Shown here piece by piece: positions 1,071 through 15,541 of a stretch of DNA of 17,312 nucleotides. How positions within the stretch are numbered: the stretch's first letter is position 1; every line of letters begins with the position of its first letter. A program made the translations under genes and the position numbers. The notes below the pieces were generated by a model. It saw nothing but the letters and a program-made list of their open reading frames with translations, was not told the DNA's origin and made no database searches. Source of the DNA: a virus (taxonomy: Duplodnaviria; Heunggongvirae; Uroviricota; Caudoviricetes); the IMG/VR virus record IMGVR_UViG_2531839532_000013, positions 1-17,312 of that record. The stretch is one strand, 5' to 3'.

Positions 1071-1103
1071 GGGGTTACGTGAAAGCGTAGCCCCTTTTTC
1101 TTT
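1071..1103 (+). terminator. Rho-independent terminator of ssrA
   Basis: Stem GGGGTTACG (1071-1079) / CGTAGCCCC (1086-1094) with one G-U pair, loop TGAAAG, followed by TTTTTCTTT (1095-1103). Confidence 0.7.
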
Positions 1104-1203
1104 GGTAGTGGCGGCAAAATGGCGACAGACTTTTGCGTCCATCTTGCCTGTCGCCATCTTGAAATCATGCAAAGAGGTTTCACATGGAAGAACTTCACTT
1201 TGT

Positions 1204-2541
1204 TTACATCAATGCAAATGGTCGTATCTCCAGCACGCGCTGGATGGTTCCCATCGCATCCTTCGTCATCTGCTTTTCAATCACTTCAGGATTGAGTTTC
1301 AGCAGATTCATCCCTTCAAAGAAACTCTTGCTTTGCATGGTGGCAATGGACAATTCACGCACCATCGCGTTTGCTGCACTGGCTGCAACCTCTGGCGCAG
1401 CGCCCAGTGTCAGGAAGGTGGAACCCAGCGCCGCCGCTTTACGATAATCCAGACGGTCAGCCACACCGCCCAGACGTTGCATCACATCAATGATGTCTGC
1501 CCCTTTCGACATGGCGTTATCATCCAGATAGTTCAGCGCATCGCCGAGCTGTTCAATATTGCGGGTAGGTATTTTGTAGAGCTGGGCGATTTTCCCCAGA
1601 CTTTCTGACAGTTCATCCGCTGGCAGCTCAAAGGCTGTGGCCGCCTTTGCTGCCGTACTGGCGAAGGCCAGCAGGTCACGTTTCTGGTCTTCCCAGCTGT
1701 CGTCAGGGTTTGCGACGTTCATGCGCGCACCACCTTCAACCAGTGCAGCGAAATCCACCGCACCGTTTTCCATCGGCAACTGTTCGCTGGCAGCCTTGAT
1801 GGCATCCTGCATTTCATAAAAACGTGCAGTGCGGTTGCCATTATCGTCACGCAGGCCATTGACCTGCTTTGCCACACCTTTCATGGCATCTTCCATGCTG
1901 GTATAGCTTTTTACTGCCACCATCACTGGTGCGCCCATTGCCAGCCCTGCAGCCGTGGTGGTGGCTCCGGCACCTGCAATACGATCACGCACCTCCAGCG
2001 AACGGGCATAACTGGCACGCGCTGCATTCATCCTGCGCTGAGCTTCCCCCAGTCGCTTCAGCCGCGCCTCCTGTTTCGAAAGTTCCTGGTTATAACGTGA
2101 TGTTTCACGGGCTAAACGGGCAGTTGCTCCCGCATCGTCTTTCGCAGAAATTCCCGCCCGGTACAGTTCAGCACGCACAAGCGCCGTCTGCTGCTGCAGC
2201 TTTTTCTGGCGTTCTTCCAGGCGCTGAACAGCCAGCCGTTGACGGCCCAGAGCAACAACCTGACGTTGCGAAGGCGGCCCCATCGCTCCCAGTTCCTGAC
2301 TGAGCAAATTTGCACGCTGGCGGGCATAGTTCAGCCTGTCGCCTAATTTCTGATTTTCTGCCTGCAGCTTTCGGAAGCTGTCCAGACTGCTCCCGGCCTG
2401 ATCAAGCTGCTTTATTGCATCGCGGGATTTTTTGACAGCAGCAGCCAGTTCTCTTGAACTGGCCTGCGCAGATCGAAATGGGCGGGTGAGCTTGTCAACC
2501 GCATTAAGAATGACCTGCAGACGCAGGTTGTTATCACTCAT
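1204..2541 (-). pseudogene. Tail tape-measure protein (P2 gpT-like), N-terminal 445-aa fragment, C-terminally truncated
   Basis: ATG at 2541 overlaps the stop of the upstream -1 frame extension (ATGAGTGA), the P2 E'/T arrangement. N-terminal coiled-coil region rich in Q/R/A/L followed by a tape-measure-core-like segment (KAAALGSTFLTLGAAPEVAASAANAMVRELSIATMQ). The ORF stops at 445 aa, about 140 bp from the ssrA terminator, whereas P2-type tape measures are roughly twice that length. Confidence 0.65.
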
Positions 2542-2713
2542 CGTTGGCCCCGCTTCTCTGAATCGCTTTATACCGCCATTCCAGCACTTCGGTCAGCGGC
2601 ATAACGTCAGTAACGGATGGCGGCCAGTGAAAAATGGTGGCGATATCTGCCACCAGATCGTCAACCGTCAGGCTGTCGGAAAACCGGCAAGCACCGACTT
2701 CTTCAACAAAAAA
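2534..2713 (-). CDS. gpE' -1 frame extension (E+E' frameshift product), open from the slippery site to a TGA overlapping the tape-measure ATG
   Basis: Hand translation of the -1 frame from the heptamer (minus strand, 2713 to 2707) gives 57 sense codons (VEEVGACRFSDSLTVDDLVADIATIFHWPPSVTDVMPLTEVLEWRYKAIQRSGANDE) ending at TGA 2536-2534, which overlaps the T-fragment ATG at 2541-2539. Confidence 0.55.
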   Translation of the reverse strand, partial: FFVEEVGACRFSDSLTVDDLVADIATIFHWPPSVTDVMPLTEVLEWRYKAIQRSGANDE

Positions 2714-2892
2714 GTGACAACCTCAACCGACATGGCAGTGAGATCTGCCGGGTCCATCTCTGCAATTTCCTGTGCAGTCAGTGCCGGACTGGAGATGCGG
2801 GGGATCACGGTCATCATCGCGTTTACATCCATACCGCCTGTTGCACGCTGGCGGTAGTCCTGGCGGCTGTCTTCATGGCTCAGCTTGTCCAC
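2668..2892 (-). CDS. Tail assembly chaperone gpE-like ORF (possibly 5'-truncated); zero-frame product of the E/E' frameshift pair
   Basis: Small ORF immediately upstream of the tape-measure start on the same strand; contains slippery heptamer T TTT TTG twelve codons before its stop. The ORF-track start at 2892 is GTG; first ATG is at 2832. Assignment is by position and frameshift architecture, not by sequence identity. Confidence 0.5.
   Translation of the reverse strand: MDKLSHEDSRQDYRQRATGGMDVNAMMTVIPRISSPALTAQEIAEMDPADLTAMSVEVVTFLLKKSVLAGFPTA
2707..2713 (-). other. Programmed -1 ribosomal frameshift slippery heptamer TTTTTTG (X XXY YYZ form)
   Basis: Plus-strand caaaaaa at 2707-2713 reads T TTT TTG on the minus strand, in frame as ACT TTT TTG within the gpE-like ORF; the same heptamer is used by the P2 E/E' tail chaperone genes as I recall. 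Confidence 0.55.
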
Positions 2893-3617
2893 CTCAGCTG
2901 TGCCTGCAGGGCTGTCTCCAGCTCAGACAGGCGTTCTTCCTGTTCAGACAGGGATTTTTCGGTGCGCGCACTCAGGTTTTGCTGCTCAGTGGCAACCAGC
3001 TCCACGGCCTTATGCACATCAGAGAACCGGGCATCATCGGACTGCTCTTTTTTGGTGAACAGCGCCGTGACACGGGCAAACAGGGATGGTTTTTCGTCCT
3101 GGACTTCTTCCAGTTCGATCACCGTTTCCTCTGCAGCGGTAAAAAGATTGGCGGGATTCTGCTTGCGGTTTGCCAGCGGGTTATGGGCTGCACTGGCGCT
3201 GAATGTCAGCATTTCCGTACCCAGACTGGCGGGATCATCAGTGGCGGCCAGGCCAACCAGGTAGGCTTTGCCCGTATCAGCGAACTTCGGGCTGACTTCC
3301 ATAGAGGTGAATAATTTCTGGCCTTTTTTCACCAGTTCCACCAAGGACTCCGTTGGCTCAACGTCGGCATACAGCGCCATCTTGCCTGCCAGCGGACCTT
3401 CCGTGATTTCTTCAGCAAACAGCGCCGTCACCTTGCCGTAGCGGTTAAAGGTGCTGTCCGGAAGATAAGACTTGATGTGCTCAAGGTTAATCAGCGCGGT
3501 ATACACCGCCGGGTTGTAGCTGGCTGCCATCTGTTCCAGCCATTCACGCTGGATTTCACGTCCGTCGGTAGTGGCACCTTCCACCCCGATGCGAAAACGC
3601 TTTGCTTTCACTGTCAT
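2880..3617 (-). CDS. O: Capsid scaffolding protein gpO (P2 family), 245 aa; C-terminus probably altered by a deletion junction
   Basis: ATG at 3617 with GGAG upstream; protein shows the gpO pattern (RIGVEGATTDGREI..., INLEHIKSYLPD..., KAYLVGLAATDDPASLGTEMLTF, SDDARFSDVHKAVE). It is shorter than I recall for P2 gpO and ends in LRWTS directly overlapping the gpE-like ORF. Confidence 0.8.
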   Translation of the reverse strand: MTVKAKRFRIGVEGATTDGREIQREWLEQMAASYNPAVYTALINLEHIKSYLPDSTFNRYGKVTALFAEEITEGPLAGKMALYADVEPTESLVELVKKGQKLFTSMEVSPKFADTGKAYLVGLAATDDPASLGTEMLTFSASAAHNPLANRKQNPANLFTAAEETVIELEEVQDEKPSLFARVTALFTKKEQSDDARFSDVHKAVELVATEQQNLSARTEKSLSEQEERLSELETALQAQLRWTS

Positions 3618-3695
3618 GAGCCGTGCTCCGTTAGAAAAAACTTACTGGAGCCTTATGGTTGCGGTGATGGGGGCAGTGAAACAATGCGCGGTATT

Positions 3696-3713
3696 TGTAC
3701 CGACAACCACACA
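3696..3713. promoter_or_regulatory. TGT-N12-ACA dyad, the Ogr/B-type late-activator binding site of P2/186 late promoters, in the divergent O/P intergenic region
   Basis: TGT at 3696-3698, 12-nt spacer accgacaaccac, ACA at 3711-3713; centre lies about 87 nt upstream of the O start codon and 55 nt upstream of the P start codon. Confidence 0.45.
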
Positions 3714-3759
3714 AACCGCAGGCGGGGAAAGCCTTCATTCAAGGCTGTAGGTTTGTGCC

Positions 3760-5526
3760 ATGAACACCACACTGACACCCGCAGATCTCGATCCCCGTCG
3801 GCAGGCCATGCTGCTGTACTTTCAGGGATACCGCGTAGCCCGCATTGCTGAAATGCTGGGCGAGAAAGTTGCAACCGTTCACAGCTGGAAAAAACGCGAC
3901 AAGTGGGGTGACTATGGGCCGCTGGATCAGATGCAGCTCACCACCGCCGCACGCTACTGCCAGCTCATTATGAAGGAGCACAAAGAAGGGAAAGATTTCA
4001 AAGAGATTGACCTGCTGGCGCGCCAGTCGGAGCGCCACGCGCGGATCGGCAAGTTTAACAATGGCGGCAACGAAGCCGACTTAAACCCTAACGTCGCCAA
4101 CCGCAACAAAGGCCCGCGCCGTCAGCCGGAAAAGAATGTTTTCACCGATGAGCAGATTGAGAAGCTGGAAGAAATCTTCCATTCCTCCATGTTCAACTAC
4201 CAGCGCCACTGGTGGGAAGCCGGAAAAGCCAACCGCATCCGCAACCTGCTGAAGTCACGCCAGATCGGCGCGACCTTTTACTTTGCCCGTGAAGCCCTGA
4301 TTGACGCCCTGCTTACCGGACGTAACCAGATTTTCCTTTCCGCCAGCAAGGCACAGGCCCACGTCTTTAAGCAGTACATCATCGACTTCGCCAAAGAAGT
4401 GGAGGTGGAGTTGAAAGGCGATCCGATGGTGCTTCCTAACGGGGCCACGCTTTACTTCCTCGGCACCAATGCCCGCACTGCCCAGAGTTATCACGGCAAC
4501 CTGTATCTGGATGAATATTTCTGGATACCGAAATTCCAGGAGCTGCGCAAAGTGGCTTCCGGTATGGCTATTCACAAAAAATGGCGACAAACCTATTTTT
4601 CCACGCCATCCAGCCTGACTCACAGTGCTTATCCGTTCTGGTCCGGTGCGCTGTTCAATCGTGGGCGCAACAAAGCCGATAAGGTGGACATCGACCTGTC
4701 CCACAGCAATCTGGCCCCCGGCCTGCTGTGCGCAGACGGGCAGTACCGCCAGATAGTCACTGTGGAAGATGCGGTGCGCGGCGGCTGTAACCTGTTCGAC
4801 CTCGACCAGTTGCGCATGGAGTACAGCCCGGACGAATACCAGAACCTGCTGATGTGCGAGTTTGTGGACGATCTCGCGTCCGTGTTTCCGCTCAGCGAGC
4901 TGCAGGCGTGCATGGTGGACAGTTGGGAAGTCTGGACCGACTTTCATGCTCTGGCCCTGCGCCCGTTTGGCTGGCGCGAAGTGTGGATCGGTTATGACCC
5001 GGCAAAAGGTACGCAGAACGGCGACAGCGCCGGATGCGTGGTGGTGGCACCGCCAGCCGTGCCGGGCGGTAAGTTTCGCATTCTTGAGCGTCACCAGTGG
5101 CGCGGGATGGACTTCCGCGCCCAGGCTGACGCAATCAAAAAACTGACCGAGCAGTACAACGTGACCTACATCGGCATCGACTCAACCGGCGTTGGTCACG
5201 GGGTTTACGAGAACGTGAAAGCGTTCTTTCCTGCCGTCCGGGAGTTTGTCTACAACCCCAACGTTAAAAACGCCCTGGTACTCAAGGCCTACGACATTAT
5301 CAGCCACCGCCGTCTGGAGTTTGACGCCGGACATACCGACATTGCGCAGTCATTTATGGCAATCCGTCGCGCCACCACCGCCAGTGGCAACCGCCCGACC
5401 TATGAAGCCAGCCGCAGCGAAGAAGCCAGCCACGCCGATCTGGCATGGGCAACAATGCACGCACTGTTTAACGAACCGCTGCAGGGCGAATCCGCCAATA
5501 CCAGCAATATTGTGGAGATTTTTTGA
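3760..5526 (+). CDS. P: Terminase large (ATPase/nuclease) subunit gpP, 588 aa
   Basis: ATG at 3760; strong resemblance to P2 gpP throughout (QAMLLYFQGYRVARIAEMLGEKVATVHSWKKRDKW, KSRQIGATFYFAREALIDALLTGRNQIFLSASKAQAHVFKQYII, WIGYDPAKG...DSAGCVVVAPP); stop TGA overlaps the Q start. Confidence 0.92.
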   Translation: MNTTLTPADLDPRRQAMLLYFQGYRVARIAEMLGEKVATVHSWKKRDKWGDYGPLDQMQLTTAARYCQLIMKEHKEGKDFKEIDLLARQSERHARIGKFNNGGNEADLNPNVANRNKGPRRQPEKNVFTDEQIEKLEEIFHSSMFNYQRHWWEAGKANRIRNLLKSRQIGATFYFAREALIDALLTGRNQIFLSASKAQAHVFKQYIIDFAKEVEVELKGDPMVLPNGATLYFLGTNARTAQSYHGNLYLDEYFWIPKFQELRKVASGMAIHKKWRQTYFSTPSSLTHSAYPFWSGALFNRGRNKADKVDIDLSHSNLAPGLLCADGQYRQIVTVEDAVRGGCNLFDLDQLRMEYSPDEYQNLLMCEFVDDLASVFPLSELQACMVDSWEVWTDFHALALRPFGWREVWIGYDPAKGTQNGDSAGCVVVAPPAVPGGKFRILERHQWRGMDFRAQADAIKKLTEQYNVTYIGIDSTGVGHGVYENVKAFFPAVREFVYNPNVKNALVLKAYDIISHRRLEFDAGHTDIAQSFMAIRRATTASGNRPTYEASRSEEASHADLAWATMHALFNEPLQGESANTSNIVEIF

Positions 5527-6566
5527 TGGGAAAGAGTAAGAAGAACCGAGCTGCGGCGACGAAACAGATCCAGCTTAAAAGTCAAACTACAGCCGAAGCA
5601 TTCAGCTTCGGCGATCCCGTTCCTGTTCTGGACCGCCGTGAACTGCTGGACTATGTGGAATGCGTACAGATGGACCGTTGGTATGAGCCGCCCGTCAGCT
5701 TTGACGGACTGGCGCGCACCTTCCGCGCCGCCGTGCATCACAGTTCCCCGATTGCAGTAAAGTGCAACATTCTGACCAGTACCTATATCCCTCATCCGCT
5801 GCTCAGCCAGCAGGCTTTTTCGCGTTTTGTGCAGGACTATCTGGTATTTGGTAACGCCTACCTGGAGAAACGCACGAACCGATTCGGTGAAGTTATCGCC
5901 CTTGAGCCTGCGCTGGCAAAATACACCCGACGCGGGTTAGACCTGGATACCTACTGGTTTGTGCAATACGGTATGACAACCCAGCCGTATCAGTTCACGA
6001 AAGGCAGCATTTTTCATCTAATGGAACCGGATATTAATCAGGAGATCTACGGCCTGCCCGGTTATCTTTCTGCAATTCCGTCTGCCCTGCTCAACGAGTC
6101 CGCCACGCTGTTCCGTCGAAAGTATTACATTAACGGCAGTCATGCAGGCTTCATCATGTACATGACCGATGCCGCGCAAAACCAGGAGGATGTGAACAAC
6201 CTCCGCAATGCGATGAAAAGCGCCAAAGGACCAGGTAACTTCCGCAATCTGTTTATGTACTCGCCTAACGGCAAAAAGGACGGGCTTCAGATCATCCCGT
6301 TGTCAGAAGTCGCGGCGAAGGATGAGTTTCTGAATATCAAGAACGTGAGCCGGGACGACATGATGGCAGCACACCGAGTGCCGCCGCAGATGATGGGGAT
6401 TATGCCTAATAATGTAGGGGGGTTTGGGGATGTGGAGAAAGCCAGCCGGGTATTTGTTCGGAATGAACTGATGCCTTTACAAAAACGCATTGCCGAAATT
6501 AATGAATGGTTAGATGAAGAGGTAGTCAAATTTGAATATTATGGCTTAGAAAATAATCAGTCATAA
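5526..6566 (+). CDS. Q: Portal vertex protein gpQ
   Basis: ATG at 5526 overlaps the P stop (TTGATGG); the ORF-track start at 5523 is a TTG. Co-oriented with and coupled to gpP and divergent from gpO, as in P2. Confidence 0.85.
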   Translation: MGKSKKNRAAATKQIQLKSQTTAEAFSFGDPVPVLDRRELLDYVECVQMDRWYEPPVSFDGLARTFRAAVHHSSPIAVKCNILTSTYIPHPLLSQQAFSRFVQDYLVFGNAYLEKRTNRFGEVIALEPALAKYTRRGLDLDTYWFVQYGMTTQPYQFTKGSIFHLMEPDINQEIYGLPGYLSAIPSALLNESATLFRRKYYINGSHAGFIMYMTDAAQNQEDVNNLRNAMKSAKGPGNFRNLFMYSPNGKKDGLQIIPLSEVAAKDEFLNIKNVSRDDMMAAHRVPPQMMGIMPNNVGGFGDVEKASRVFVRNELMPLQKRIAEINEWLDEEVVKFEYYGLENNQS

Positions 6567-6572
6567 AAAAGA

Positions 6573-6605
6573 AGTGAACAAGTTGAAATTATCAGCTTGT
6601 TCACT
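6573..6605. terminator. Bidirectional rho-independent terminator between convergent Q and the Q-cos cargo genes
   Basis: Perfect 10-bp stem AGTGAACAAG (6573-6582) / CTTGTTCACT (6596-6605) with a 13-nt loop; A6 run upstream on the plus strand (a U-run for the minus strand) and a weak T-rich tract downstream. Confidence 0.65.
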
Positions 6606-6621
6606 ATTATCTGTATTATCT

Positions 6622-6891
6622 CTACTGCATCCGTCCGGGTAAATCGCTTTCATTGCGTAAACGCCAAGCTAACTGTTCACGATCCCAAACTATATCGTCT
6701 TTGCTAGCCTTTCTAAAATTTGCTAGCACAGTACTGCTTATAGCGTAATTACCATTCTCATTAGTTTTGATGAACTCGTCCCCAAAGTCATTGATTAGAA
6801 ATTCAACAACCTCGGACTGATACAACACACCATTAGAACGAGTGGTATTAACCATCCAGTCAACTATTTTTATCAGAGAATCATTCATCAT
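6622..6891 (-). CDS. Hypothetical protein, about 88 aa, unrecognised; second gene of an overlapping two-gene cargo unit
   Basis: ORF-track start at 6912 is TTG; tandem ATG codons at 6891 and 6888 preceded by GAGAG. The start overlaps the stop of the upstream gene by 11 nt (minus-strand ATGATGAATGA). Visibly AT-rich relative to the phage core. Confidence 0.55.
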   Translation of the reverse strand: MMNDSLIKIVDWMVNTTRSNGVLYQSEVVEFLINDFGDEFIKTNENGNYAISSTVLANFRKASKDDIVWDREQLAWRLRNESDLPGRMQ

Positions 6892-7090
6892 CACTCTCAG
6901 CTTTTGGAACAAATAAAACTAGAGTATCTTCATGAAAAACTCCGCGCTGGTTCTTAGCACCAATAAACCACGTACAAACTGCCATTGTAGCCGATTGGTA
7001 GTGATCAATTACCATGATTGGACCATGTCCTGTTGCATGTTTTACTTTCTGGCCCGGTGTATATTTTGCCACTCTCACGTCTCCTTTCAT
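6881..7090 (-). CDS. Small DUF2158 / YodC-like protein, 69 aa
   Basis: ATG at 7090; an AAGGAG motif inside the first codons precedes in-frame GTG codons, so the true start may be a few codons later. Sequence pattern (GDVRV...GHGPIMVIDH...CTWF...GVFHEDTLVLF) fits the small YodC/DUF2158 family as I recall it. Confidence 0.6.
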   Translation of the reverse strand: MKGDVRVAKYTPGQKVKHATGHGPIMVIDHYQSATMAVCTWFIGAKNQRGVFHEDTLVLFVPKAESDDE

Positions 7091-7151
7091 GTGTAAGTTA
7101 TCAATTTCAGAATATATCTACATTAATTGCAAGTAAACATGTTTGCGCGCG

Positions 7152-7170
7152 CTCGTATCCCCGCCACGCC
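7152..7170. other. Candidate cos (cohesive end) site of the P2/186 family
   Basis: CTCGTATCCCCGCCACGCC at 7152-7170 matches the reverse complement of the 186-type 19-nt cohesive end as I remember it at about 15 of 19 positions, including the CCCCGCCACGCC core; it lies between Q and the A side, where cos sits in P2. Confidence 0.45.
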
Positions 7171-7215
7171 TGCCCGCTTTATGTAGTGGTTTTCATGCAG
7201 GAGCATGATCTACGC

Positions 7216-7239
7216 AAAAGCCCGCCAGTTCTGGCGGGC
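7216..7239 (-). terminator. Terminator-like GC hairpin with U-run on the minus strand, just beside the cos candidate
   Basis: Stem GCCCGCCA (7220-7227) / TGGCGGGC (7232-7239), loop GTTC; plus-strand AAAA at 7216-7219 gives a U-run after the hairpin on the minus strand. Confidence 0.4.
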
Positions 7240-7512
7240 CTTAGCAAAAACGATCCTCAAACGATCATGCAATCTCATGCAGCATAGACATGCACAGACG
7301 AGTAAAGCGAATCGGACTTTACGCAAGGTGAACTCCTCAGCGGGCATAATCAGTATGTCGGAAGATCTCTAAAAATAAATAATTCGGTTAACAGGTATGC
7401 TTACAAAAGCATATATTTGATTAAAAATCATGTAAGGGGGAGGATCTCAAACTGAATCGCCACGGGTTTTACAAATTTCGATAGTCTCTCTAACGTTTCG
7501 GCTGAGGTCAAA

Positions 7513-7938
7513 ATGAAAAGCTTTTACGTATTAATTTTAATTCTGGTTGCAAGCTTTGTTAGCGTCCCAGTTCAGGCGGTAACAGCTAAAAACTATGAGA
7601 AAGGAACTAAAGCTCAACAGAAATCAATATCTTACCTTTCATGTGCATTCTATGGCAGTAGCACACAATTAGATCCTAGCTACACGGAGCAAGTACCTAC
7701 AGCCGATATCAAGATATTACAGAAAGCAGCTTACCACGCTTACAACGATGCGCTCTCATACTTTGGCTATGAGGAACCAGATCACGAACAACGCATAATT
7801 GATTATGCTGAATTTGTGGCGTCGCAAGAAGCTGTGTTATGGGATAAGCCGGGAATGAATGGAAAGCAGGTAACACTAATTGCTCGTTCTCTCTACAATG
7901 AGAGTAACTGTAACTTGTTACTGGACTCAATTAAGTAG
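7513..7938 (+). CDS. Hypothetical secreted (signal-peptide) protein, 141 aa; AT-rich cargo gene
   Basis: ATG at 7513 with GAGG 8 nt upstream; N-terminus MKSFYVLILILVASFVSVPVQA has basic-hydrophobic-AxA signal-peptide form; no family recognised; visibly AT-rich block. Confidence 0.65.
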   Translation: MKSFYVLILILVASFVSVPVQAVTAKNYEKGTKAQQKSISYLSCAFYGSSTQLDPSYTEQVPTADIKILQKAAYHAYNDALSYFGYEEPDHEQRIIDYAEFVASQEAVLWDKPGMNGKQVTLIARSLYNESNCNLLLDSIK

Positions 7939-8097
7939 GAAAAAGATGGTATTTTGCCCGTAGTTTCAACCTTAATCTCCGAACCTGTCGCAGAACGGGC
8001 GTTCACTCATCAAATAAACGCCACACCTAACGCCTCACTGTACTCGTTGTTCAACCTTGCTGACGCCAGAACCAAGTTCAGACGCCAGCAACTTTTC

Positions 8098-8331
8098 TTA
8101 ATGCAGCCAGCTGTCGTCTTCCCACACCTTCTGCATAATCTTCATCACTTGTTTTCTTTCTTCGTCCAGTTGCAGTCCGGTCAGTTCCACACCGTTAGAG
8201 CTACCTTTGCGGATGCGAATTACCGTTTTGGGATACAGGGGGCGCAGATTGCGGTAAAGCTCGGATTCAAGGGCGTCCAGGGGAGACTGGCTAATCTTCT
8301 GCTCTTTATCGATCATTATTTCAATGCGCAT
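8098..8331 (-). CDS. DinI-family protein (SOS-associated RecA modulator family), 77 aa from the internal ATG
   Basis: From ATG 8331 (GAGGGG upstream) the protein MRIEIMIDKEQKISQSPLDALESELYRNL...KQVMKIMQKVWEDDSWLH aligns by eye along its whole length with E. coli DinI. The longer ORF-track start at 8403 overlaps the upstream gene and is probably not used. Confidence 0.8.
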   Translation of the reverse strand: MRIEIMIDKEQKISQSPLDALESELYRNLRPLYPKTVIRIRKGSSNGVELTGLQLDEERKQVMKIMQKVWEDDSWLH

Positions 8332-8341
8332 AAAGGTCCCC

Positions 8342-8530
8342 TCAGCTGATGACATCCATTGAGCGGTTGTATTCGTGGGTTCTGATTTTTGCCATGAGTT
8401 CATCTGTCAGTTCAGAAACCCACTGCAAAGCCAGCCCCTTCTCTTCATCACTACACTCACTAGCCGCTACAAGCTTAAGAAAAAAATCAATGCGCTGGAG
8501 CTTCAAAGACTCCAAAAAATAGTCCTGCAT
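8342..8530 (-). CDS. Small hypothetical protein, 62 aa; possible Tum-like antirepressor N-terminal module
   Basis: ATG at 8530 preceded by AGGAGG; lies directly upstream of the DinI-like gene and downstream of a LexA box. The longer track ORF from 8632 has no comparable ribosome-binding site. Function is inferred from context only. Confidence 0.5.
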   Translation of the reverse strand: MQDYFLESLKLQRIDFFLKLVAASECSDEEKGLALQWVSELTDELMAKIRTHEYNRSMDVIS

Positions 8531-8571
8531 CTTTCCTCCTATGACACCACAAGCAATACTGTATACATAAC

Positions 8572-8591
8572 CACTGTTTATATTTACAGTA
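8572..8591. promoter_or_regulatory. LexA operator (SOS box), CTGT-N8-ACAG, upstream of the small-protein/DinI-like gene pair
   Basis: CACTGTTTATATTTACAGTA at 8572-8591 with CTGT 8574-8577 and ACAG 8586-8589; an additional half-site-like TACTGTATACATA at 8557-8569; located 42-61 nt upstream of the ATG at 8530. Confidence 0.7.
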
Positions 8592-8683
8592 TATAATAAT
8601 CTTACTGATGTAAAACGTTTTTTTACGTTCATTAGCCTGATATGCCTGGTATTATTAAGAGCACGAATTGTTAACCCGCGTAA

Positions 8684-11098
8684 TTAATACAGGTTTCGCC
8701 ACTTATCATCTTCCTGCAAACGCTGGTTCCGATAGAAGATACGCAGGCCTGCTCCTGACGGAATACTGCCGCCGCGAAGGAGTAAATCGACCTCTTTCTC
8801 GCTGCCATTAAATCCTCTGGACTTCAGTTCATAGACTAGCTGCTGTCGCTGATGGTCTGTAATTCGCTGTTTGTAGTCTTTACGCCGTTTCGGTTTCACC
8901 AGGCGTAACCTTGCAGCCAGTTCCCGGCGCTCTTTTTTGCTCATACTGTGCAGGTAATCGTGCAACTCCTTGTCATCCATGCGGGTAATGTCCGTCCTGG
9001 TATCCCCATCAGCTGATTTGTCTTTCCCTTGTTGGTTCAAATTTTCAGCAAGGGGACAGTTATTGCCACGAGTCCAAGGGGCGCAAGCGCCCTGGTCGGC
9101 TGCCGCCTCCTGAACGTCAACGGCTTTACGAACCATTTTCCACTTCACTGCATGAGTGCAGATCTTGCCCTCTGCAATGGGTGACCAGATGCCATAAATA
9201 CGAATACCGTGATCGCCATAGGCGGTCGGCTCTTCGTTGATTTCATAAGCGGTTCTGATGAGGTGATATTTACGGGGAACCAGTACGCCGCCCTGCTTCA
9301 TGATGTAGGTAGCAAAACAACCAGCATCAGCAGCAGCCAGAATGGCATCAAGACGCGGGTTATCCAGTACCGGCGCACCTGCTTTTTTGTCACCCTGTTG
9401 CCTTGCCACCTGACCAGCCAGCAAGCGAAGTTCACGGTAAGCCTGACGTCCCGGAATACCAAAGAAGCGGAATTGCTGTACACGATGCAGAGACGCCCAG
9501 GCATTAACGTATTCAGCGTTATCACGCAAGGATTTACCCGTTTCCTTACTGATCTCGCCAGCCAGACCACGCCCGTCAATGTTCTTACTGATGTATTTCG
9601 CGATGTAGCTTGTCGGCGTTCCTTTGCGCGGGTTTATCAGCTCAGACTTAAAGCGTGGCTCCGTGTTATTGCCCAGCTCCTCGCGGTCTTCACGGATGGC
9701 AAACTTACGCAGTAATGCAGTGATGGCGCGGCGGTCTTTTTTGCGCATGAAACACAATAGGTGCCAGTGAACGGTGCCGTCATGATGAGGCTCAGCCACC
9801 CGCACGCCATACCAGCGCAACCCGGCTTTATGCATAGCCTTACGAAATGCAGCAAACATGCCGACCAGATAATCGCTGCTTTGTCTTACCGTCGCATTTG
9901 TCCAGGTCGGGTTGGGCCTGCCGTTATTTAGCGTGGAATGGAAACGTGACGGACAGGTGATGGTGTAGAAAACGGCGCAGTCACCGCGCATTTCCGCGAT
10001 AAGCTCCAGACCTTTAACACAGGCCATCATCTCATTGCGGCGATGCGCAGGGTTGCTGCTGCTGGCGTTTACCACATCCTCCATGTCCAGTGTGTCGCCG
10101 TCTTCGTTCACCAGTTCATGAGAACGGAAAAACTCCAGTGACTTGCGGCGCTGCTCACGTTTATGCATCACGGCTTCATAGCTAACATAGGGAGATGCTT
10201 TTTTGCTGACCAGGCAGACAGCACGCAACTGCTCTTCCCGCCATTCGCAACGCATCTTCCATAATTTCCGATACCACCAGTCGGCGCACAACATACGCGC
10301 CAGCGAACCCGGAATGAGTTCATAGGGCACGGGTTTGCGGCGGTTTCTTTTCCGACGAAGTTGCTCAAACGCAGGCGGTATGACATCCAGTCGCAGGGTT
10401 TCCGCTGCTACCTTTTCCCATGTCTTGCGGATTTCTTCTGGCTTAACATCATCGGTGGCATACAAATCGCCACAAGCGGCATCAAGGCACATGCTCATAT
10501 GCGCAGCTACCAGGGTGGACAGGCGTTTTACCTGATCCTGACTCATTTCAGGCAGAATCAGCAGGCCGTCCAGCCCTTCATGGCTTGCCATAAAGCGAAA
10601 AGAAGTGGATAGCTGACTGTCGCGTACATGCTCCAGCCGTTCCAGACATGGCTTAATCGTCTTACGCAAATAGCGGGAATAAGCCTTTGGCCTGCCCAGT
10701 CTGCTGAAGTATTCAATACGTTGCATCAGCGGCTTGCTGATATGGGAAGGCTGGGCGTTAACGTCCGCCAGAATGACCATGTCTGGATTAAAACGCTGCT
10801 GCTCATGCGCCAGCTTTGCCCGGCTAATAAGCTTATCCTGCTCCATTTCGCGTTGGACAGGATCACGGGATTCATTAAAGAAATAACGCTCCCAGACCTG
10901 ATCACTCAGTGCCTCGCGGCGCAGCTGTTCCTGCTCGTTATCGGTAGCGTACAGAGTGATCAGGTTTGAAAGCGCAGAAACCGGCGCAACTTCCGCCGGG
11001 TCCAGATAAGGGTTAATAGCCTTTTTCGGGCTGTTCCATGAGAATGCTGCGGCGACCTCGTTAACGCCGCTGCAGTTGTTCATATCGGCATGACTCAT
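8684..11098 (-). CDS. A: Replication initiation endonuclease gpA (rolling-circle initiator), 804 aa
   Basis: ATG at 11098 overlaps the Dam stop (minus-strand ATGA); HUH-type motif within [10 protein letters not shown]; size and position at the end of the early operon match P2 gpA / 186 A. Confidence 0.85.
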
Positions 11099-11952
11099 GC
11101 ACGTACTCCGTACACGGCAGAACTATCCACGCCACGCGAATAATCAAATCCCACCCAGCAGCGCGGCCCGGAAACAGCAATGATTTCTGTTGCTGATTTA
11201 CCCTCGCCAGCTGCCACACCGATGCTGCGTTTTACCTTGATATAGTGGTGAGTAAAATTGCGATACAGCGAACGGATCAGGGATGTGTCACTGTTAGAAA
11301 CAATGACCGGATGTCCTTCTGATGACCGATGTTCAAGAACGGATGCAAGGTGATACTGGTCATCTTCAGTGAAACCGTCAGTGTGATAACCGGAAAACGT
11401 ACCGTCATACGGCGGATCGCAATACACCACATCCCCCGCCTTCAACATCGCCAGCGTTTCATCAAAGCTGGCGCAGATAAACGTTGCCCGCTGGGCTTTT
11501 TCTGCAAATGCGCGAATTTCTTTTTCAGGGAAATACGGATTTTTATAATTACCGTAGGGAATGTTGAAATGCCCGCTCTTGTTATAGCGACATAAACCAC
11601 GGTAACCGTGACGATTGAGATACAGGAAATATACCGCTTTCATGAAATCAGTAATTTCAGTTGAGTAATTAAACTCCTGCCTTATGTTGTAATAAGCCAC
11701 CTCCCTGTTTGCGATCTCAAATAAAACTCTGGCGCGAGATATAAATGATTCACAATCAGCAGCAACCTTTTTATAGAGGTTGATTAAATCAGGATTAATA
11801 TCCGCAACAAGATAGCTGGGGTACTCCGTCTCCATCATCACTGCACAGGAACCCGCGAAAGGTTCAACCAGTCGCGGGCCAGCAGGAAGGTGTTTTTTCA
11901 GTTCGGACATAATTGCGGTTTTATTTCCCGCCCATTTCAGGATGGTGCTCAT
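11095..11952 (-). CDS. DNA adenine methyltransferase (Dam family), about 285 aa
   Basis: ATG at 11952 with GGAGG upstream (track start 12012 is TTG); N-terminal LKWAGNK, AdoMet-binding-like EPFAGS, and catalytic DPPY motif; an unusual C-terminal tail reaches the A start. Confidence 0.85.
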
Positions 11953-12176
11953 ACAGCACCTCCGTTGTAATGTTTGCCTTTCAGCTCTGCGATTTCCTGA
12001 CAGGTAATGCAAAGCTGCACTCCAGGAATGGCGCGGCGGCGTGCTGGCGGAATTGGCACTTCACATTCAATGCAAAGCACGCGAGACACGCCCGGTGTTT
12101 TGGCACGGGCAGCACGAATATGGCGCTGGCGTTCTTCTTCAACGCGCTGCTGTACGAGATCCATTGCATCAGCCAT
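11949..12176 (-). CDS. TraR/DksA-type C4 zinc-finger protein, 75 aa
   Basis: CxxC-N17-CxxC (CIECEVPIPPARRRAIPGVQLCITC); start ATG overlaps the upstream stop (TAATG) and its stop overlaps the Dam ATG (ATGA). Confidence 0.7.
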   Translation of the reverse strand: MADAMDLVQQRVEEERQRHIRAARAKTPGVSRVLCIECEVPIPPARRRAIPGVQLCITCQEIAELKGKHYNGGAV

Positions 12177-12409
12177 TAGTGGATCTCCTGCGCTTCGTTC
12201 TGGATTGCTTCAGCGGTCACACGCAGCAGTTCTGCCGCTTCGACGTGGTTTAGCTGGCGGGATGTGATATGACACGCAAGACTATCAAGGCGGGCAGCCA
12301 TTGCTTCAGCCCTTGCCCGGCGTTCTTCCAGACGAGCCTCTGTCAGTAAAATATTTAGCCCTACGTCATCCGGTCCGGTTTTAGTCGTGAGGGTTTCAAT
12401 ATTACGCAT
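12176..12409 (-). CDS. Hypothetical early-operon protein, about 77 aa
   Basis: ATG at 12409 preceded by AGGAG (track start 12415 is TTG); translationally coupled to the zinc-finger gene. Confidence 0.5.
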   Translation of the reverse strand: MRNIETLTTKTGPDDVGLNILLTEARLEERRARAEAMAARLDSLACHITSRQLNHVEAAELLRVTAEAIQNEAQEIH

Positions 12410-12476
12410 AATCAATTCTCCTGAATTTAGATAAAGGGATGCCCGGCGGGTTTACGCCATTAATTTCATTAGCTGG

Positions 12477-12818
12477 TTAATTCGGCATGGTTAGCCGTCT
12501 GGGAAATAAGCTCACCACTGCACGAAAATGATTCATTGCTTTAATCAACTCCCGCTTTTCGTCAGTGGTCAGCTCATTAATGCTGATGCTATGACGTTCA
12601 GCTGGAATTTTTGCCATAAAGAATATGGCAGCCAGTGCCCGTTTATTTTGTTCGCTATTAATATCCCGTGGATCACGCATATCTTTAATAAACCGTTCAA
12701 GCTCTGACTCAATATTAAGACCAAAAACTTTCGCCCTTAACTCCGCAATATGATTAAGTCCATTCAGGCGTTCACCGGGGCTTAATGGAACAGTCGCCGC
12801 AGCGCCTTCAATAGCCAT
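12477..12818 (-). CDS. Hypothetical early-operon protein, 113 aa
   Basis: ATG at 12818 preceded by GGGGGA; same strand and operon as the flanking early genes. Confidence 0.55.
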   Translation of the reverse strand: MAIEGAAATVPLSPGERLNGLNHIAELRAKVFGLNIESELERFIKDMRDPRDINSEQNKRALAAIFFMAKIPAERHSISINELTTDEKRELIKAMNHFRAVVSLFPRRLTMPN

Positions 12819-12982
12819 TTGTTCCCCCGTTTTTTCGTAGATAGTTCTGCCAGCAATTCATCTTGTGAACGGCACGGATGCCAGCGTTTACCATCCTCAC
12901 CCATGATCCAGCCGTGACCGTAGTGCATTGCCGGGCTTTGTTTAACCAGCAGCGATGCAAATGATGGTTCTTTCGTAAGCAT
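12782..12982 (-). CDS. Hypothetical small early protein, about 66 aa
   Basis: ATG at 12982 preceded by GAGGTG, 7 nt after the CII-like stop; overlaps the next gene's start by 37 nt. Confidence 0.4.
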   Translation of the reverse strand: MLTKEPSFASLLVKQSPAMHYGHGWIMGEDGKRWHPCRSQDELLAELSTKKRGNKWLLKALRRLFH

Positions 12983-12989
12983 AAGCACC

Positions 12990-13499
12990 TCACAGCAAAC
13001 CGAATGAAGCACCGAGGCCAGTCACGGTATCAACTGCACTCGCCATCGCAGGGTTAGCCTGTAAACGGGCCTGCAGTGAAACAGCAGCCAGCGCCATCAG
13101 TCGTGTTACAGAGTTAATGCTGCTGATAGCATCACGACGACCTGCACTGGTTTTTACATCGCCAGATACCGCACCTGCAGCAACACGCCCGATCTCTGCG
13201 GTTGCACTCATGACGTAATGCGGCAGTTTCTCTTTTGCTACCTCATTAATCGGTACACATGGCAGGCAGTGAATCTGTGCCAGAAAACCATCTATCAGCG
13301 TTGAATCTTCAGTCAGATCGGTAAGCAGCCAGATTTCTGGCGCATTGAGCTGATGCGGTTGATCTGGGTTGAGTTTGTTTCGCAGAGTCTGGACATTCAT
13401 TCCTGCACGTTCTGCCAGCTTCGCCATATTGTGACGAAGTGCAAAAGCTCTACAGGCTTCATCAAAATGCGGGTGTTTGGAAATCTTATAATCAAACAT
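12990..13499 (-). CDS. CII-like transcriptional activator (phage 186 CII-like), 169 aa
   Basis: ATG at 13499 preceded by AGGGGG; second gene of the leftward early operon after the Cox/Apl-like gene; HTH-like segment; strong resemblance to 186 CII as I recall it (MFD...SKHPH.DEACRAFA.RHNMAKLAE.AGMNVQTLRNKLNP...). Confidence 0.6.
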   Translation of the reverse strand: MFDYKISKHPHFDEACRAFALRHNMAKLAERAGMNVQTLRNKLNPDQPHQLNAPEIWLLTDLTEDSTLIDGFLAQIHCLPCVPINEVAKEKLPHYVMSATAEIGRVAAGAVSGDVKTSAGRRDAISSINSVTRLMALAAVSLQARLQANPAMASAVDTVTGLGASFGLL

Positions 13500-13531
13500 G
13501 CTACCCCCTTAGAAAGTTCTCATAATTGAAC

Positions 13532-13774
13532 TCACTTACCAACAATGACGCGGAAGTTGGAATGACCGAGGGATTCACGGACCTGATCGGTTTTGTACAT
13601 TAAATAACGCAGACTTACGCGGCCTTTGTTTTTTTCTTTCTTGACCATGTATTTAGCAAGCTGACCATGGTGAATTTTTTGATACACGGAGCCGCGGGAG
13701 ATACCTTCCCATTCCGCGAACTCTGCAGGCGTAGCCATCTCTTTTGGTACACGAATTGAAATATCAGTGCTCAT
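13532..13774 (-). CDS. Cox/Apl-like excisionase / early transcriptional regulator, 80 aa
   Basis: ATG at 13774 preceded by GGGAG; first gene of the lytic operon, facing the repressor gene; HTH-like segment. Confidence 0.6.
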   Translation of the reverse strand: MSTDISIRVPKEMATPAEFAEWEGISRGSVYQKIHHGQLAKYMVKKEKNKGRVSLRYLMYKTDQVRESLGHSNFRVIVGK

Positions 13775-13809
13775 AGTGCAGTATCTCCCGATTAAGGTTT
13801 GGTTTACGT

Positions 13810-13876
13810 CGTTTTATCTCGTTTTACTTGATTCAATATTTGATACATAGAGATACTACGATCCAATATTTGATAC
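13810..13876. promoter_or_regulatory. Immunity-region operator candidates: two 13-bp direct repeats CAATATTTGATAC and tandem CGTTTTA repeats
   Basis: CAATATTTGATAC at 13834-13846 and 13864-13876 (30-bp spacing), overlapping the spacer and downstream side of the leftward promoter; CGTTTTA at 13810-13816 and 13820-13826. Confidence 0.5.
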
Positions 13877-13881
13877 GTCAA
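13853..13881 (-). promoter_or_regulatory. Strong sigma70 early lytic promoter (leftward): -35 TTGACG, 17-nt spacer, -10 TAGTAT
   Basis: On the minus strand TTGACG (plus 13876-13881), spacer TATCAAATATTGGATCG, TAGTAT (plus 13853-13858); drives the Cox/Apl-like to A operon. Confidence 0.55.
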
Positions 13882-13893
13882 CAGGATTAAAAA

Positions 13894-14526
13894 ATGATAC
13901 AGGTAAAGGCTGGAGAGAATACAGGGGGAAGAGAGGCTATCCATAGACTAATGGCAGCCTATGATTTCAAGTCCAGACAGCAACTTTGCGATCACTTAGG
14001 CGCATCAAAAAGCACCATGGCAAACAGATACTTAAGAGATAGTTTTCCTGCAGAGTGGGTGATTCAGTGCGCCTTGGAAACAGGAGTTTCTTTACTGTGG
14101 CTAACCACCGGACAGGGAGAGCCAGGTCCAAACATTAAACCTAAAAAAAATATCAATTCCGTGAACTCCAGCAAGGTTGTACCTCTTTCTGAACTAGTAT
14201 CTCCTGAAATTGACAAGGCGACTCTCAACGGTGGTTTATTGGTCGATGCTGGAAAAGCAATCATTGATAGCAGCATACTCCCCTCAGACTCAAGCAACCT
14301 ACTGCTGGTGACTACTTCTGGTGATTCTTATTTAATAGATCGCAACCAAACACCACCAGTAAATGGTATGTGGTTAGTCGATATCGACGGGATAAAAAGC
14401 ATTGTTAAATTGACTCGGCTCCCGGGAAACAAATTAGTAGTGCATCAGGATGATTCATCGTTTGAGTGCGGTCTGGATGACATTGAGGTAGTAGGCCGCG
14501 CACTGAAAATCATTAAGAGCCTTTGA
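13894..14526 (+). CDS. CI-type immunity repressor (phage 186 CI-like), 210 aa
   Basis: ATG at 13894 with AGGA upstream; N-terminal HTH region (...STMANRYLRDSFPAEWVIQCALETGVSLLWLTTGQGEP) resembles 186 CI; immediately upstream of and co-oriented with int. Confidence 0.75.
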   Translation: MIQVKAGENTGGREAIHRLMAAYDFKSRQQLCDHLGASKSTMANRYLRDSFPAEWVIQCALETGVSLLWLTTGQGEPGPNIKPKKNINSVNSSKVVPLSELVSPEIDKATLNGGLLVDAGKAIIDSSILPSDSSNLLLVTTSGDSYLIDRNQTPPVNGMWLVDIDGIKSIVKLTRLPGNKLVVHQDDSSFECGLDDIEVVGRALKIIKSL

Positions 14527-14527
14527 T

Positions 14528-15541
14528 ATGACCATCAGAAAACAGCCGAACGGAAAATGGTTGTGTGAGTGCTATCCCAATGGACGCAATGGCAAGCGCG
14601 TGCGTAAGCAATTTGCTACGAAAGGCGAAGCCATTGCGTTTGAAAGCTTCACAATGGAAGAAGTGAATAAAAAACCGTGGTTGGGTGAAAAGGATGATCG
14701 GCGACGCCTATCAGAATTAATTGAGCTTTGGTATTCCCTGTATGGTCAAACACTCGCAGACCCCAAGCGCCTCATGGCGAAACTTAGAATTATCTGTAAT
14801 GGTCTAGGCGATCCCATCGCCTCAGAACTGACAGCTGGTGACTTTACAAAATACCGCGAAGCACGGTTAAAAGGTGAAATACGAAATGAAGATGGCACAC
14901 TTATGTCGCCCGTAAAGCCCCGTACGGTAAACCTTGAACAGCGCAATCTATCATCTGTGTTCGGTACATTAAAAAAACTAGGACACTGGTCAGCACCAAA
15001 CCCGCTGGCAGGACTTCCGACCTTCAAAATTGCCGAAGGTGAGCTGGCTTTTCTTTCCACGGACGAAATCAAGCGCCTGTTGGCGGCATGTGCTGAATCT
15101 CAAAACCCTAGCTTACTAATGATTGCAAAAATATGCCTAGCTACTGGCGCACGGTGGAGTGAAGCCGAAAATCTGCAGGGCCACCAAATATCGAAATACC
15201 GAATTACTTATACAAAAACAAAAGGCAAGAAAAACAGAACAGTACCCATATCACAGGAGCTGTATGACGAACTCCCAAAGAACAGAGGGAAGTTATTCTC
15301 ACCATGTAGAAAAGCCTTTGAACGAGCAGTAAAACGGGCAGGTATAGATCTACCGGATGGCCAATGCACCCACGTGCTGCGACATACGTTTGCTAGCCAC
15401 TTTATGATGAATGGCGGGAACATACTTGTGCTAAGGGATATTTTGGGACATTCGGATATCAAGATGACCATGGTTTACTCACATTTCTCACCAGATCATC
15501 TTGAAGATGCCGTTACTAAGAACCCATTAAACTTGATATAA
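14528..15541 (+). CDS. int: Tyrosine integrase, P2/186 type, 337 aa
   Basis: ATG at 14528, 1 nt after the repressor stop; strong resemblance to P2 Int including GRNGKR near the N-terminus, LATGARWSEA, HVLRHTFASHFMMNGG and the catalytic-tyrosine region MVYSHF. Confidence 0.92.
   Translation: MTIRKQPNGKWLCECYPNGRNGKRVRKQFATKGEAIAFESFTMEEVNKKPWLGEKDDRRRLSELIELWYSLYGQTLADPKRLMAKLRIICNGLGDPIASELTAGDFTKYREARLKGEIRNEDGTLMSPVKPRTVNLEQRNLSSVFGTLKKLGHWSAPNPLAGLPTFKIAEGELAFLSTDEIKRLLAACAESQNPSLLMIAKICLATGARWSEAENLQGHQISKYRITYTKTKGKKNRTVPISQELYDELPKNRGKLFSPCRKAFERAVKRAGIDLPDGQCTHVLRHTFASHFMMNGGNILVLRDILGHSDIKMTMVYSHFSPDHLEDAVTKNPLNLI

Follow-up and report, generated by a model that had tools for sequence, protein, structure and literature searches.

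A probable SOS-controlled, two-cistron tum operon in a Fels-2-like prophage remnant of Escherichia coli

Two short genes on the minus strand of the window (the whole stretch of DNA analysed, 17,312 nucleotides) very likely constitute the SOS operon of a Fels-2-type (186-like, P2-family) prophage, in the two-cistron TumA/TumB form and with the mechanism that goes with it, i.e. a LexA-repressed transcript that would encode an antirepressor of the 186-type CI protein followed by a DinI-like protein. This split arrangement is already published, annotated and very common: roughly a fifth of the complete E. coli genomes (1125 of 5426) carry exactly the same module, which is also present in 67 phage records. 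Both the mechanism and the split structure have been known for 186, PSP3 and Fels-2 for more than 10 years; the window adds an instance, not a principle. In a large class of P2-family prophages, DNA damage is sensed via a LexA-controlled antirepressor and not through cleavage of the repressor. The dual SOS box of the operator and the way one antirepressor seems to tolerate divergent CI proteins are small leads on the timing of induction and on cross-talk between prophages.

The preliminary description of this DNA had interpreted the locus as a LexA-controlled, two-cistron equivalent of 186 Tum and had offered two explanations for it, a natural bipartite variant and a frameshifted tum. The equivalence is supported by profile alignment of the first product with the N-terminal half of Tum (hhalign probability of 95.6%) and by the 41% identity of the second product to Tum residues 71–145. 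The bipartite variant is borne out by strong purifying selection (dN/dS of ~0.09) and by the stand-alone form of all 66 representative relatives of the first protein; the frameshifted tum is rejected, the fused form being found only in a tight clade around 186.

Operator and promoter

A perfect CTGT-N8-ACAG had been placed 42–61 nt upstream of the 62-aa ORF, and the minus strand indeed carries it there, within a 20-mer at 8572–8591, counting from the ATG at 8530. The core, CTGTTTATATTTACAG at 8574–8589, is the sole perfect CTGT-N8-ACAG in the whole window. By itself, such a core is weak evidence for a LexA box: 0.23 occurrences are expected per window, and at least one appears in 40 of 200 shuffles. 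The complete 20-mer is more informative. This distal box, TACTGTAAATATAAACAGTG, agrees with the full LexA consensus TACTGTATATATATACAGTA at 17 of 20 positions, and a single site in the window, against none in the 200 shuffles, comes within three mismatches of the 20-nt consensus. The distal box is kept in Fels-2, SEN8, Klebsiella phi4.1 and Yersinia MLG42.

The perfect core thus stands as described, but the description of a single operator does not, because a second, imperfect box overlaps the first. This proximal box, CAGTGGTTATGTATACAGTA (8557–8576, minus strand), matches the consensus at 15 of 20 positions, is offset by 15 nt from the distal box and shares 5 nt with it; it is kept throughout the Fels-2 branch, and in a MAFFT alignment it falls opposite the single LexA box of 186 and PSP3. 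Judged by its sequence, the operator (8557–8591) is a pair of overlapping SOS boxes of the colicin type rather than a single box. A plasmid search with the 54 nt of the operator region as query matched Yersinia pestis pPCP1 and numerous small plasmids of the Col type, in which the operator-like sites are located just upstream of the genes for colicin Y, colicin N and pesticin. A core of ~36 nt, ACTGTA.ATA.AA.CAGTGGTT.T.T.TACAGTATT, is invariant in all five aligned sequences (window, Fels-2, colicin Y, colicin N and pesticin), and the window has the organization that marks colicin-type operators, namely two 20-nt LexA sites (17/20 and 15/20) at a 15-nt offset with a common CAGTGG junction. By analogy with the colicin-type boxes, we infer that the promoter in the window is held by two LexA dimers.

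The putative promoter resembles p95 of phage 186, which is annotated with a −35 hexamer TTCACA, an 18-nt spacer and a −10 hexamer TACTGT. In the window, TTTACA (8614..8609, minus strand) is followed by a 17-nt spacer and then by the distal 20-mer, the first six nucleotides of which, TACTGT (8586–8591), would serve both as −10 hexamer and as left half of the LexA box, which is where the −10 of 186 p95 is also placed with respect to its own box. The arrangement TT(T/C)ACA, 17–18 nt, TACTGT is kept in all nine phages compared, with divergent spacer sequences. The two boxes, together with the 17 nt between TTTACA and TACTGT, are kept against diverging flanks in the window, Fels-2, SEN8, Klebsiella phi4.1 and Yersinia MLG42, which make up the Fels-2 branch; in 186, PSP3 and the ESSI-type phages, a single LexA box stands in the same relation to the −35 and −10. 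Because a strict promoter consensus scan of positions 7900–8800 called no promoter, these hexamers included, the p95-like promoter is assigned by analogy and conservation. So assigned, it would be overlapped by the predicted LexA operator directly upstream of the first gene. The −35 hexamer lies just outside the segment covered by the preliminary description (8098–8591).

The two cistrons and their relation to 186 Tum

The first cistron, a tumA-like gene of 62 codons, occupies positions 8530..8342 on the minus strand, including the stop codon TGA (8344..8342). The AGGAGG noted earlier in front of it is present at 8540..8535 and reads as a Shine-Dalgarno sequence, with relatives keeping AGGAGG(G/A)AA(G/A)ATG. 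The encoded protein is 98.4% identical to Fels-2 STM2728 and matches phrog_698 (3.6e-38) and, more weakly, phrog_8554 and phrog_1993, the families that are also matched by the N-terminal 69 residues of 186 Tum. Compared pairwise, the protein reaches only ~20% similarity to either Tum or PSP3 TumA.

The alignment of both ORFs with 186 Tum, proposed in the preliminary description, was carried out. BLASTP yields no alignment for the 62-aa ORF, profile comparison matches it to the N-terminal half of Tum, and the second ORF aligns with the C-terminal half at 41% identity. The profile match depends on the breadth of the query: hhalign with a narrow profile is suggestive only (P 0.0017) and becomes convincing once diverse representatives are used. 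The diverse-relatives profile then aligns with the family profile of the Tum N-half at the 95.6% probability given above (E 1.2e-8), columns 3–44 on columns 3–44, in register, and the same profile, run as an HMM, matches 186 Tum residues 5–48 with 28 bits (E 6.5e-11). A pattern common to the 62-aa family and the Tum N-half, E-x4-(Q/E)R(I/V)-x5-(K/R)L-x5-C-x2-(D/E)(K/R)-x-(L/I)A(L/I)-x-(W/L)(I/V)(S/A)E(L/I), can be written down; PSP3 TumA is not convincingly aligned by the HMM of the 62-aa family. A lack of similarity to the N-terminal region of Tum had been named as the outcome that would speak against the proposal; the profile alignment finds that similarity, and the first product is homologous to the N-terminal (antirepressor) half of 186 Tum.

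Other resources add little on function. The 62-aa ORF has no family in Pfam or NCBIfam, and a PDB sequence search with it returned nothing. AlphaFold2 models the protein as a helical hairpin (residues 2–23 and 28–61) with the conserved cysteine in the turn and a mean pLDDT of 89.8, and a Foldseek search with this model found generic or designed helical hairpins only, none with E <0.001. By analogy with 186, the protein is presumed to be an antirepressor of 186-type CI. Phages of the ESSI type (ESSI-2-type) carry a tumA-like gene behind a LexA box and have no DinI gene, so the tumA-like gene is an autonomous unit. In RefSeq and in most phage records, the 62-aa gene is labelled as a ‘hypothetical protein’ or, wrongly, as a ‘levan regulatory protein’. 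The name TumA-like antirepressor could be taken up in annotation.

The second cistron, a tumB-like gene of 77 codons (8331..8098, minus strand), had been described as a DinI homologue that follows 10 nt later in another frame, and this description holds: its ATG at 8331 comes 10 nt after the tumA-like stop, in the +1 frame (8530 − 8331 = 199), and the product matches Pfam DinI (PF06183) with E 3.9e-22 and 78.8 bits, against a gathering cut-off of 24.2. It shares 77% of its residues with PSP3 TumB and 99% with Fels-2 STM2726.1, and it matches the solved structure of E. coli DinI (1ghh) with 3.8e-6. Against the equivalog model for chromosomal DinI (NCBIfam NF007893) it scores 41.5 bits, below the cut-off of 111, and by these matches it is classified as a phage DinI-like paralogue, not as host DinI. 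A GAGGGG ribosome-binding site (8338–8343, minus strand) overlaps the stop codon of the tumA-like gene and lies 6 nt before the ATG, which suggests translational coupling of the two cistrons. Just 3′ of the tumB-like stop, RNA folding predicts a hairpin of 11+4 bp (8057–8091, minus strand) that is a possible transcript end; it has no U-tract, the z-score of the region is only −1.46 (not significant), and a terminator scan of positions 7900–8800 found nothing.

Whether one or two cistrons is the norm among 186- and Fels-2-like phages had been raised as a question, and the comparison answers it in favour of two. All 66 representative relatives (clusters) of the 62-aa protein are short, stand-alone proteins and none is fused to DinI; the few longer relatives owe their length to N-terminal extensions from mis-called starts and have no DinI domain. 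Even proteins closely related to the N-half of 186 Tum are mostly 63–90 aa long, several of them being named ‘Tum protein’, and in the phage collection the fused 146-aa Tum does not extend beyond one clade with 94% identity or more to 186. The manner of division varies: in PSP3-like phages, the halves are separated by an in-frame stop, and in Fels-2-like phages, they are in different frames. In the window, too, the antirepressor and DinI-like parts are not in one frame, with the stop at 8344..8342, the 10-nt gap and the +1 change between them. The two-gene layout is shared by Fels-2, SEN8 and phages of Klebsiella and Yersinia and, by these sequence comparisons, is the norm among relatives.

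Both cistrons are under strong purifying selection across relatives (dN/dS of ~0.05–0.10 overall, 0.08–0.09 for the tumA-like and 0.05–0.10 for the tumB-like cistron). Given this selection, the two-gene norm, the DinI-less ESSI-2-type phages and the unequal identities to PSP3 (77% for tumB, only 20% for tumA), the two parts evolve as separate modules. The pattern fits an immunity-specific first gene combined with a generic second gene. A frameshift, accidental or programmed, that would fuse both ORFs was considered and rejected on the grounds that the DinI frame is +1 and not −1, that there are no fused relatives and that both ORFs are under purifying selection.

Prophage context, proposed switch and alternatives

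The window comes from the E. coli chromosome and shares 99.9% identity with strain 300709; smpB and ssrA stand at its start, and a P2/186-family (Fels-2-like) prophage adjoins ssrA. The early region of the prophage is complete (int, CI, an Apl-like gene, CII, Fil, DUF5347, DUF2732, TraR/DksA, Dam and the replication endonuclease). Of the late region, terminase, portal, a truncated gpO, gpE and E+E′ and a truncated tape-measure gene are left, and the capsid, lysis and tail genes are gone; the prophage is a deleted remnant, in which the tum-like module may be orphaned. The tum-like operon directly follows the gpA-like replication endonuclease gene (8684..11098) on the same, minus strand, the same order as in 186, PSP3 and Fels-2.

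The presumed target of the tumA-like protein is a 210-aa CI repressor encoded on the plus strand (13894..14526; Pfam Phage_CI_repr and Phage_CI_C). It has the architecture of 186 CI, without an S24 self-cleavage peptidase domain, and is 58% identical to Fels-2 CI and 32% identical to 186 CI. Because this CI has no self-cleavage domain, SOS induction needs an antirepressor.

By extension from the work on 186, PSP3 and Fels-2, which underlies the assumed LexA binding, CI binding and role of the DinI-like protein, the switch would operate as follows. In the undamaged cell, LexA would sit on the overlapping boxes at 8557–8591, covering the −10 of the p95-like promoter and keeping the operon silent. 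DNA damage would activate RecA and trigger self-cleavage of LexA, the promoter would fire and a bicistronic mRNA would be made. The 62-aa helical-hairpin protein would then bind or sequester the non-cleavable 186-type CI, releasing the lytic promoter and derepressing the early genes, and the DinI-like product, the equivalent of the Tum C-half, would act on RecA filaments and modulate the SOS signal rather than the repressor. In this particular prophage, the outcome would be that the early genes are switched on with no virions formed: derepression cannot yield phage release because the remnant lacks the late genes.

Two other readings of the locus are very improbable. According to one of them, the gene pair is a decayed, frameshifted pseudogene copy of an originally fused 186-type tum. 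The DinI frame does stay open for 72 nt upstream of its ATG (a 101-aa ORF at 8098..8403), such that a +1 shift within the first ORF would yield a protein of ~143 aa, near the 146 aa of Tum, but a stop-free stretch of 24 codons has a chance expectation of about one in three. Each cistron, moreover, has its own ribosome-binding site and start codon, the low dN/dS extends to both, the two-gene layout recurs in the Fels-2, SEN8, Klebsiella and Yersinia phages and in the 1125 E. coli genomes, and fusion is seen in none of the 66 representatives and is confined to the immediate clade of 186; the pseudogene reading is effectively refuted. According to the other, an AT-rich palindrome resembles a LexA site by chance, and expression of the genes does not depend on DNA damage. 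The frequency of the bare core in shuffled sequences and the empty promoter scan are what such a reading would lead one to expect; the absence of the 20-mer match from all shuffles is not, and neither are the preservation of the boxes and of their spacing to TT(T/C)ACA in nine phages with divergent surroundings, the invariance of the dual-box core in SOS-regulated colicin and pesticin promoters, and the homology of the site to the known LexA operator of 186 p95.

A third alternative, unlikely although less remote, accepts the SOS-controlled operon and denies the 62-aa protein its anti-CI function: the protein would work together with RecA or the DinI-like protein, or adjust their activity, or would act on another host target, and the switch would be flipped otherwise. 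The antirepressor role of the upstream gene does rest, in the literature consulted, on a personal communication for PSP3, an identical 62-aa protein is found alongside CI proteins as unlike as 45% identity, and the structural model, a helical hairpin of a generic kind, has no neighbour that would point to a function. Such a function would, however, leave a CI that lacks the self-cleavage domain in need of some other link to the SOS response. It is also at odds with the homology to the N-half of 186 Tum, of which the full-length form inhibits DNA binding by CI and the DinI-like truncations only modulate induction; with the annotation of PSP3 tumA and the statement of Lemire et al. 2011 (PMC3121763); with the retention of the tumA-like gene by ESSI-type phages that have no DinI partner; and with the presence of a CI N-terminal domain at least 65% identical to that in the window wherever a Fels-2-type protein is present.

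The relationship between the presumed antirepressor and CI can be followed in nine phages. A first gene of the Fels-2 type (at least 84% identical) is always accompanied by a CI N-terminal DNA-binding domain at least 65% identical to that of the window, and the C-terminal domain of the same CI proteins goes down to 34% identity. Phage 813R9 is the extreme case, with an identical tumA-like protein and a CI that is 45% identical overall (N-terminal domain 65%, C-terminal domain 34%), and because of this combination, a strict one-to-one pairing of tumA-like protein and CI is not evident. Fine-scale covariation between the two proteins was not found among the nine phages, the association being a coarse one with the class of the CI N-terminal domain. 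The C-terminal domains at 34–47% and the N-terminal DNA-binding domains at 65–77% identity that go with the same antirepressor suggest that it is the N-terminal domain that is recognised; in these nine phages, the pattern is a hint compatible with such recognition or with mosaic exchange.

Taking the locus as a TumA/TumB operon with an antirepressor as its first product, one can go a step further, although only tentatively and with the odds rather against it: in the Fels-2 branch, two LexA dimers would occupy the dual box, and one and the same 62-aa protein would recognise the CI N-terminal domain and act across heteroimmune prophages. If this were true, the dual box would set a higher threshold of damage, or a later time, for prophage induction, and the antirepressor could act in trans across heteroimmune P2-family prophages, even when supplied by a deleted remnant. 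Both points may be absent from the literature.

Comparison with known systems

The closest counterpart is Fels-2, in which the STM2728 and STM2726.1 pair (98% and 99% identical to the two products of the window) also follows the replication gene (gpA), behind a near-identical promoter and dual SOS box. Its GenBank record notes the similarity of the DinI gene to TumB. Fels-2 differs from the window in its CI, which is only 58% identical (N-terminal domain 77%, C-terminal domain 47%), in the presence of a 243-aa gene after the DinI gene, which is absent from the window, and in being an intact phage rather than a deleted remnant. The primary paper on Fels-2 tum is reportedly that of Bunny et al. 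2002. The division of tum into two genes in both Fels-2 and PSP3 was described by Lemire et al. 2011 (PMC3121763), who report, from a personal communication, that the upstream gene is the antirepressor in PSP3.

In PSP3, too, gene A is followed by a LexA box and two cistrons, with a tumB 77% identical to that of the window, and the GenBank annotation of the phage spells out the relationship: tumA is ‘similar to 5' end 186 tum; UV induction of prophage’ and tumB is ‘similar to dinI and 3' end of 186 tum’. Unlike in the window, the LexA box is a single consensus one, CI has 286 aa, and the two halves are in the same frame with a stop codon between them, compared with the different frames and the 10-nt gap of the window. 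The PSP3 tumA is ~20% identical to the first gene of the window; the motif C-x2-(D/E)-x-K-LAL-x-(W/L)-(I/V)-x-(D/E)-L is common to the two by eye and is not aligned by HMM.

In phage 186, for which the LexA/p95/Tum/CI mechanism has been worked out and Tum stops the binding of CI to its operators (PMC7708051), the promoter is also LexA-repressed, with the −10 formed by the left half of the LexA box. The 62-aa ORF is the homologue of the Tum N-half and the DinI-like ORF that of the C-half, and CI has the same two-domain architecture. In contrast to the window, 186 has a fused 146-aa Tum, along with DinI-like truncations from internal starts, a single LexA box, and orf97 downstream; the fused form is limited to its narrow clade.

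More distant likenesses extend beyond the P2 family. [quoted passage not shown] In the colicin and pesticin promoters, the overlapping boxes drive the production of a bacteriocin, whereas in the window, where the distal box is, unlike theirs, a perfect CTGT-N8-ACAG, they precede the antirepressor operon of a prophage.

The prophage at ssrA and its neighbors

The genome that best matches the window is NZ_CP025903.1, with a corresponding segment of 17328 bp vs the 17312 bp of the window and a 515-bp module that is 99.6%, not 100%, identical, so the window comes from a strain or assembly that is closely related to it, yet different. The P2/186-family prophage that adjoins ssrA (window about 1100–15541) is a deleted remnant. 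According to the RefSeq annotation of the 99.9% identical locus of E. coli 300709, a tape-measure gene (truncated), gpE and E+E′, and gpO (also truncated) directly abut one another (1204–3617, minus strand); the genes for capsid, lysis and tail have been lost, as have D and ogr, and the early, immunity and SOS region is entirely intact.

The outer side of the prophage integrase is directly adjoined by a gene for a 585-aa anti-phage dCTP deaminase (15555–17312, minus strand; PADLOC dCTPase, 3e-146; Pfam cytidine/dCMP deaminase domain), which in the reference genome is followed by a second integrase-domain gene. This arrangement suggests tandem islands at the ssrA site.

Cargo next to the DinI-like gene

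A cargo segment (6622–7938) separates the DinI-like gene from the portal gene, in the place that the old/tin variable region occupies in P2. It contains the gene for a DUF6953 protein (6622–6891, minus strand), a 69-aa ORF that overlaps this gene and weakly matches DUF2158 (6881–7090, minus strand) and, on the plus strand, a 141-aa ORF whose product is hydrophobic at the N-terminus and belongs to no family (7513–7938). None of the three ORFs had a match in a PADLOC search. In Fels-2, the corresponding position is occupied by another gene, of 243 aa.

The TumA-like protein and its partners

The conserved form of the presumed antirepressor is 62 aa long, with an AGGAGG site (8342–8530, minus strand). 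Many database entries (P0005, P0007 and others) call it at 87–101 aa (window 8342–8632, minus strand); these long calls begin at an ATG farther upstream, on the 5′ side of both the LexA boxes and the inferred promoter. The long calls look like annotation errors, as does the name ‘levan regulatory protein’ that some sources apply to the gene.

Co-inheritance of the antirepressor with the CI repressor (13894–14526, plus strand) is not tight: in phage vB_EcoM-813R9, a TumA-like protein identical to that of the window (L002 6191–6379) is found together with a CI (L002 29–625) of only 45% identity (65% in the N-terminal domain and 34% in the C-terminal domain), and in SEN8, the respective identities are 89% and 90%. 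In the P2-family phages ESSI2_ev015 (L014/L019 9001–9213) and ESSI-2 (L015, about 501–668), tblastn identified a TumA-like gene (41–49% identity) that is preceded by a single LexA box, and no DinI-like gene lies downstream of it. The gene is unannotated in the ESSI-2 record.

The dual SOS box and bacteriocin promoters

Alignment of the dual SOS box of Fels-2-type tum promoters (window 8557–8591, minus strand) with the colicin Y, colicin N and pesticin promoters (L008, L009 and L010, respectively, at about 1500–1545) reveals a common invariant core of about 36 nt that includes the non-consensus CAGTGGTT junction. Such invariance would reflect either a shared regulatory cassette or else strong convergence toward the binding of two LexA dimers.
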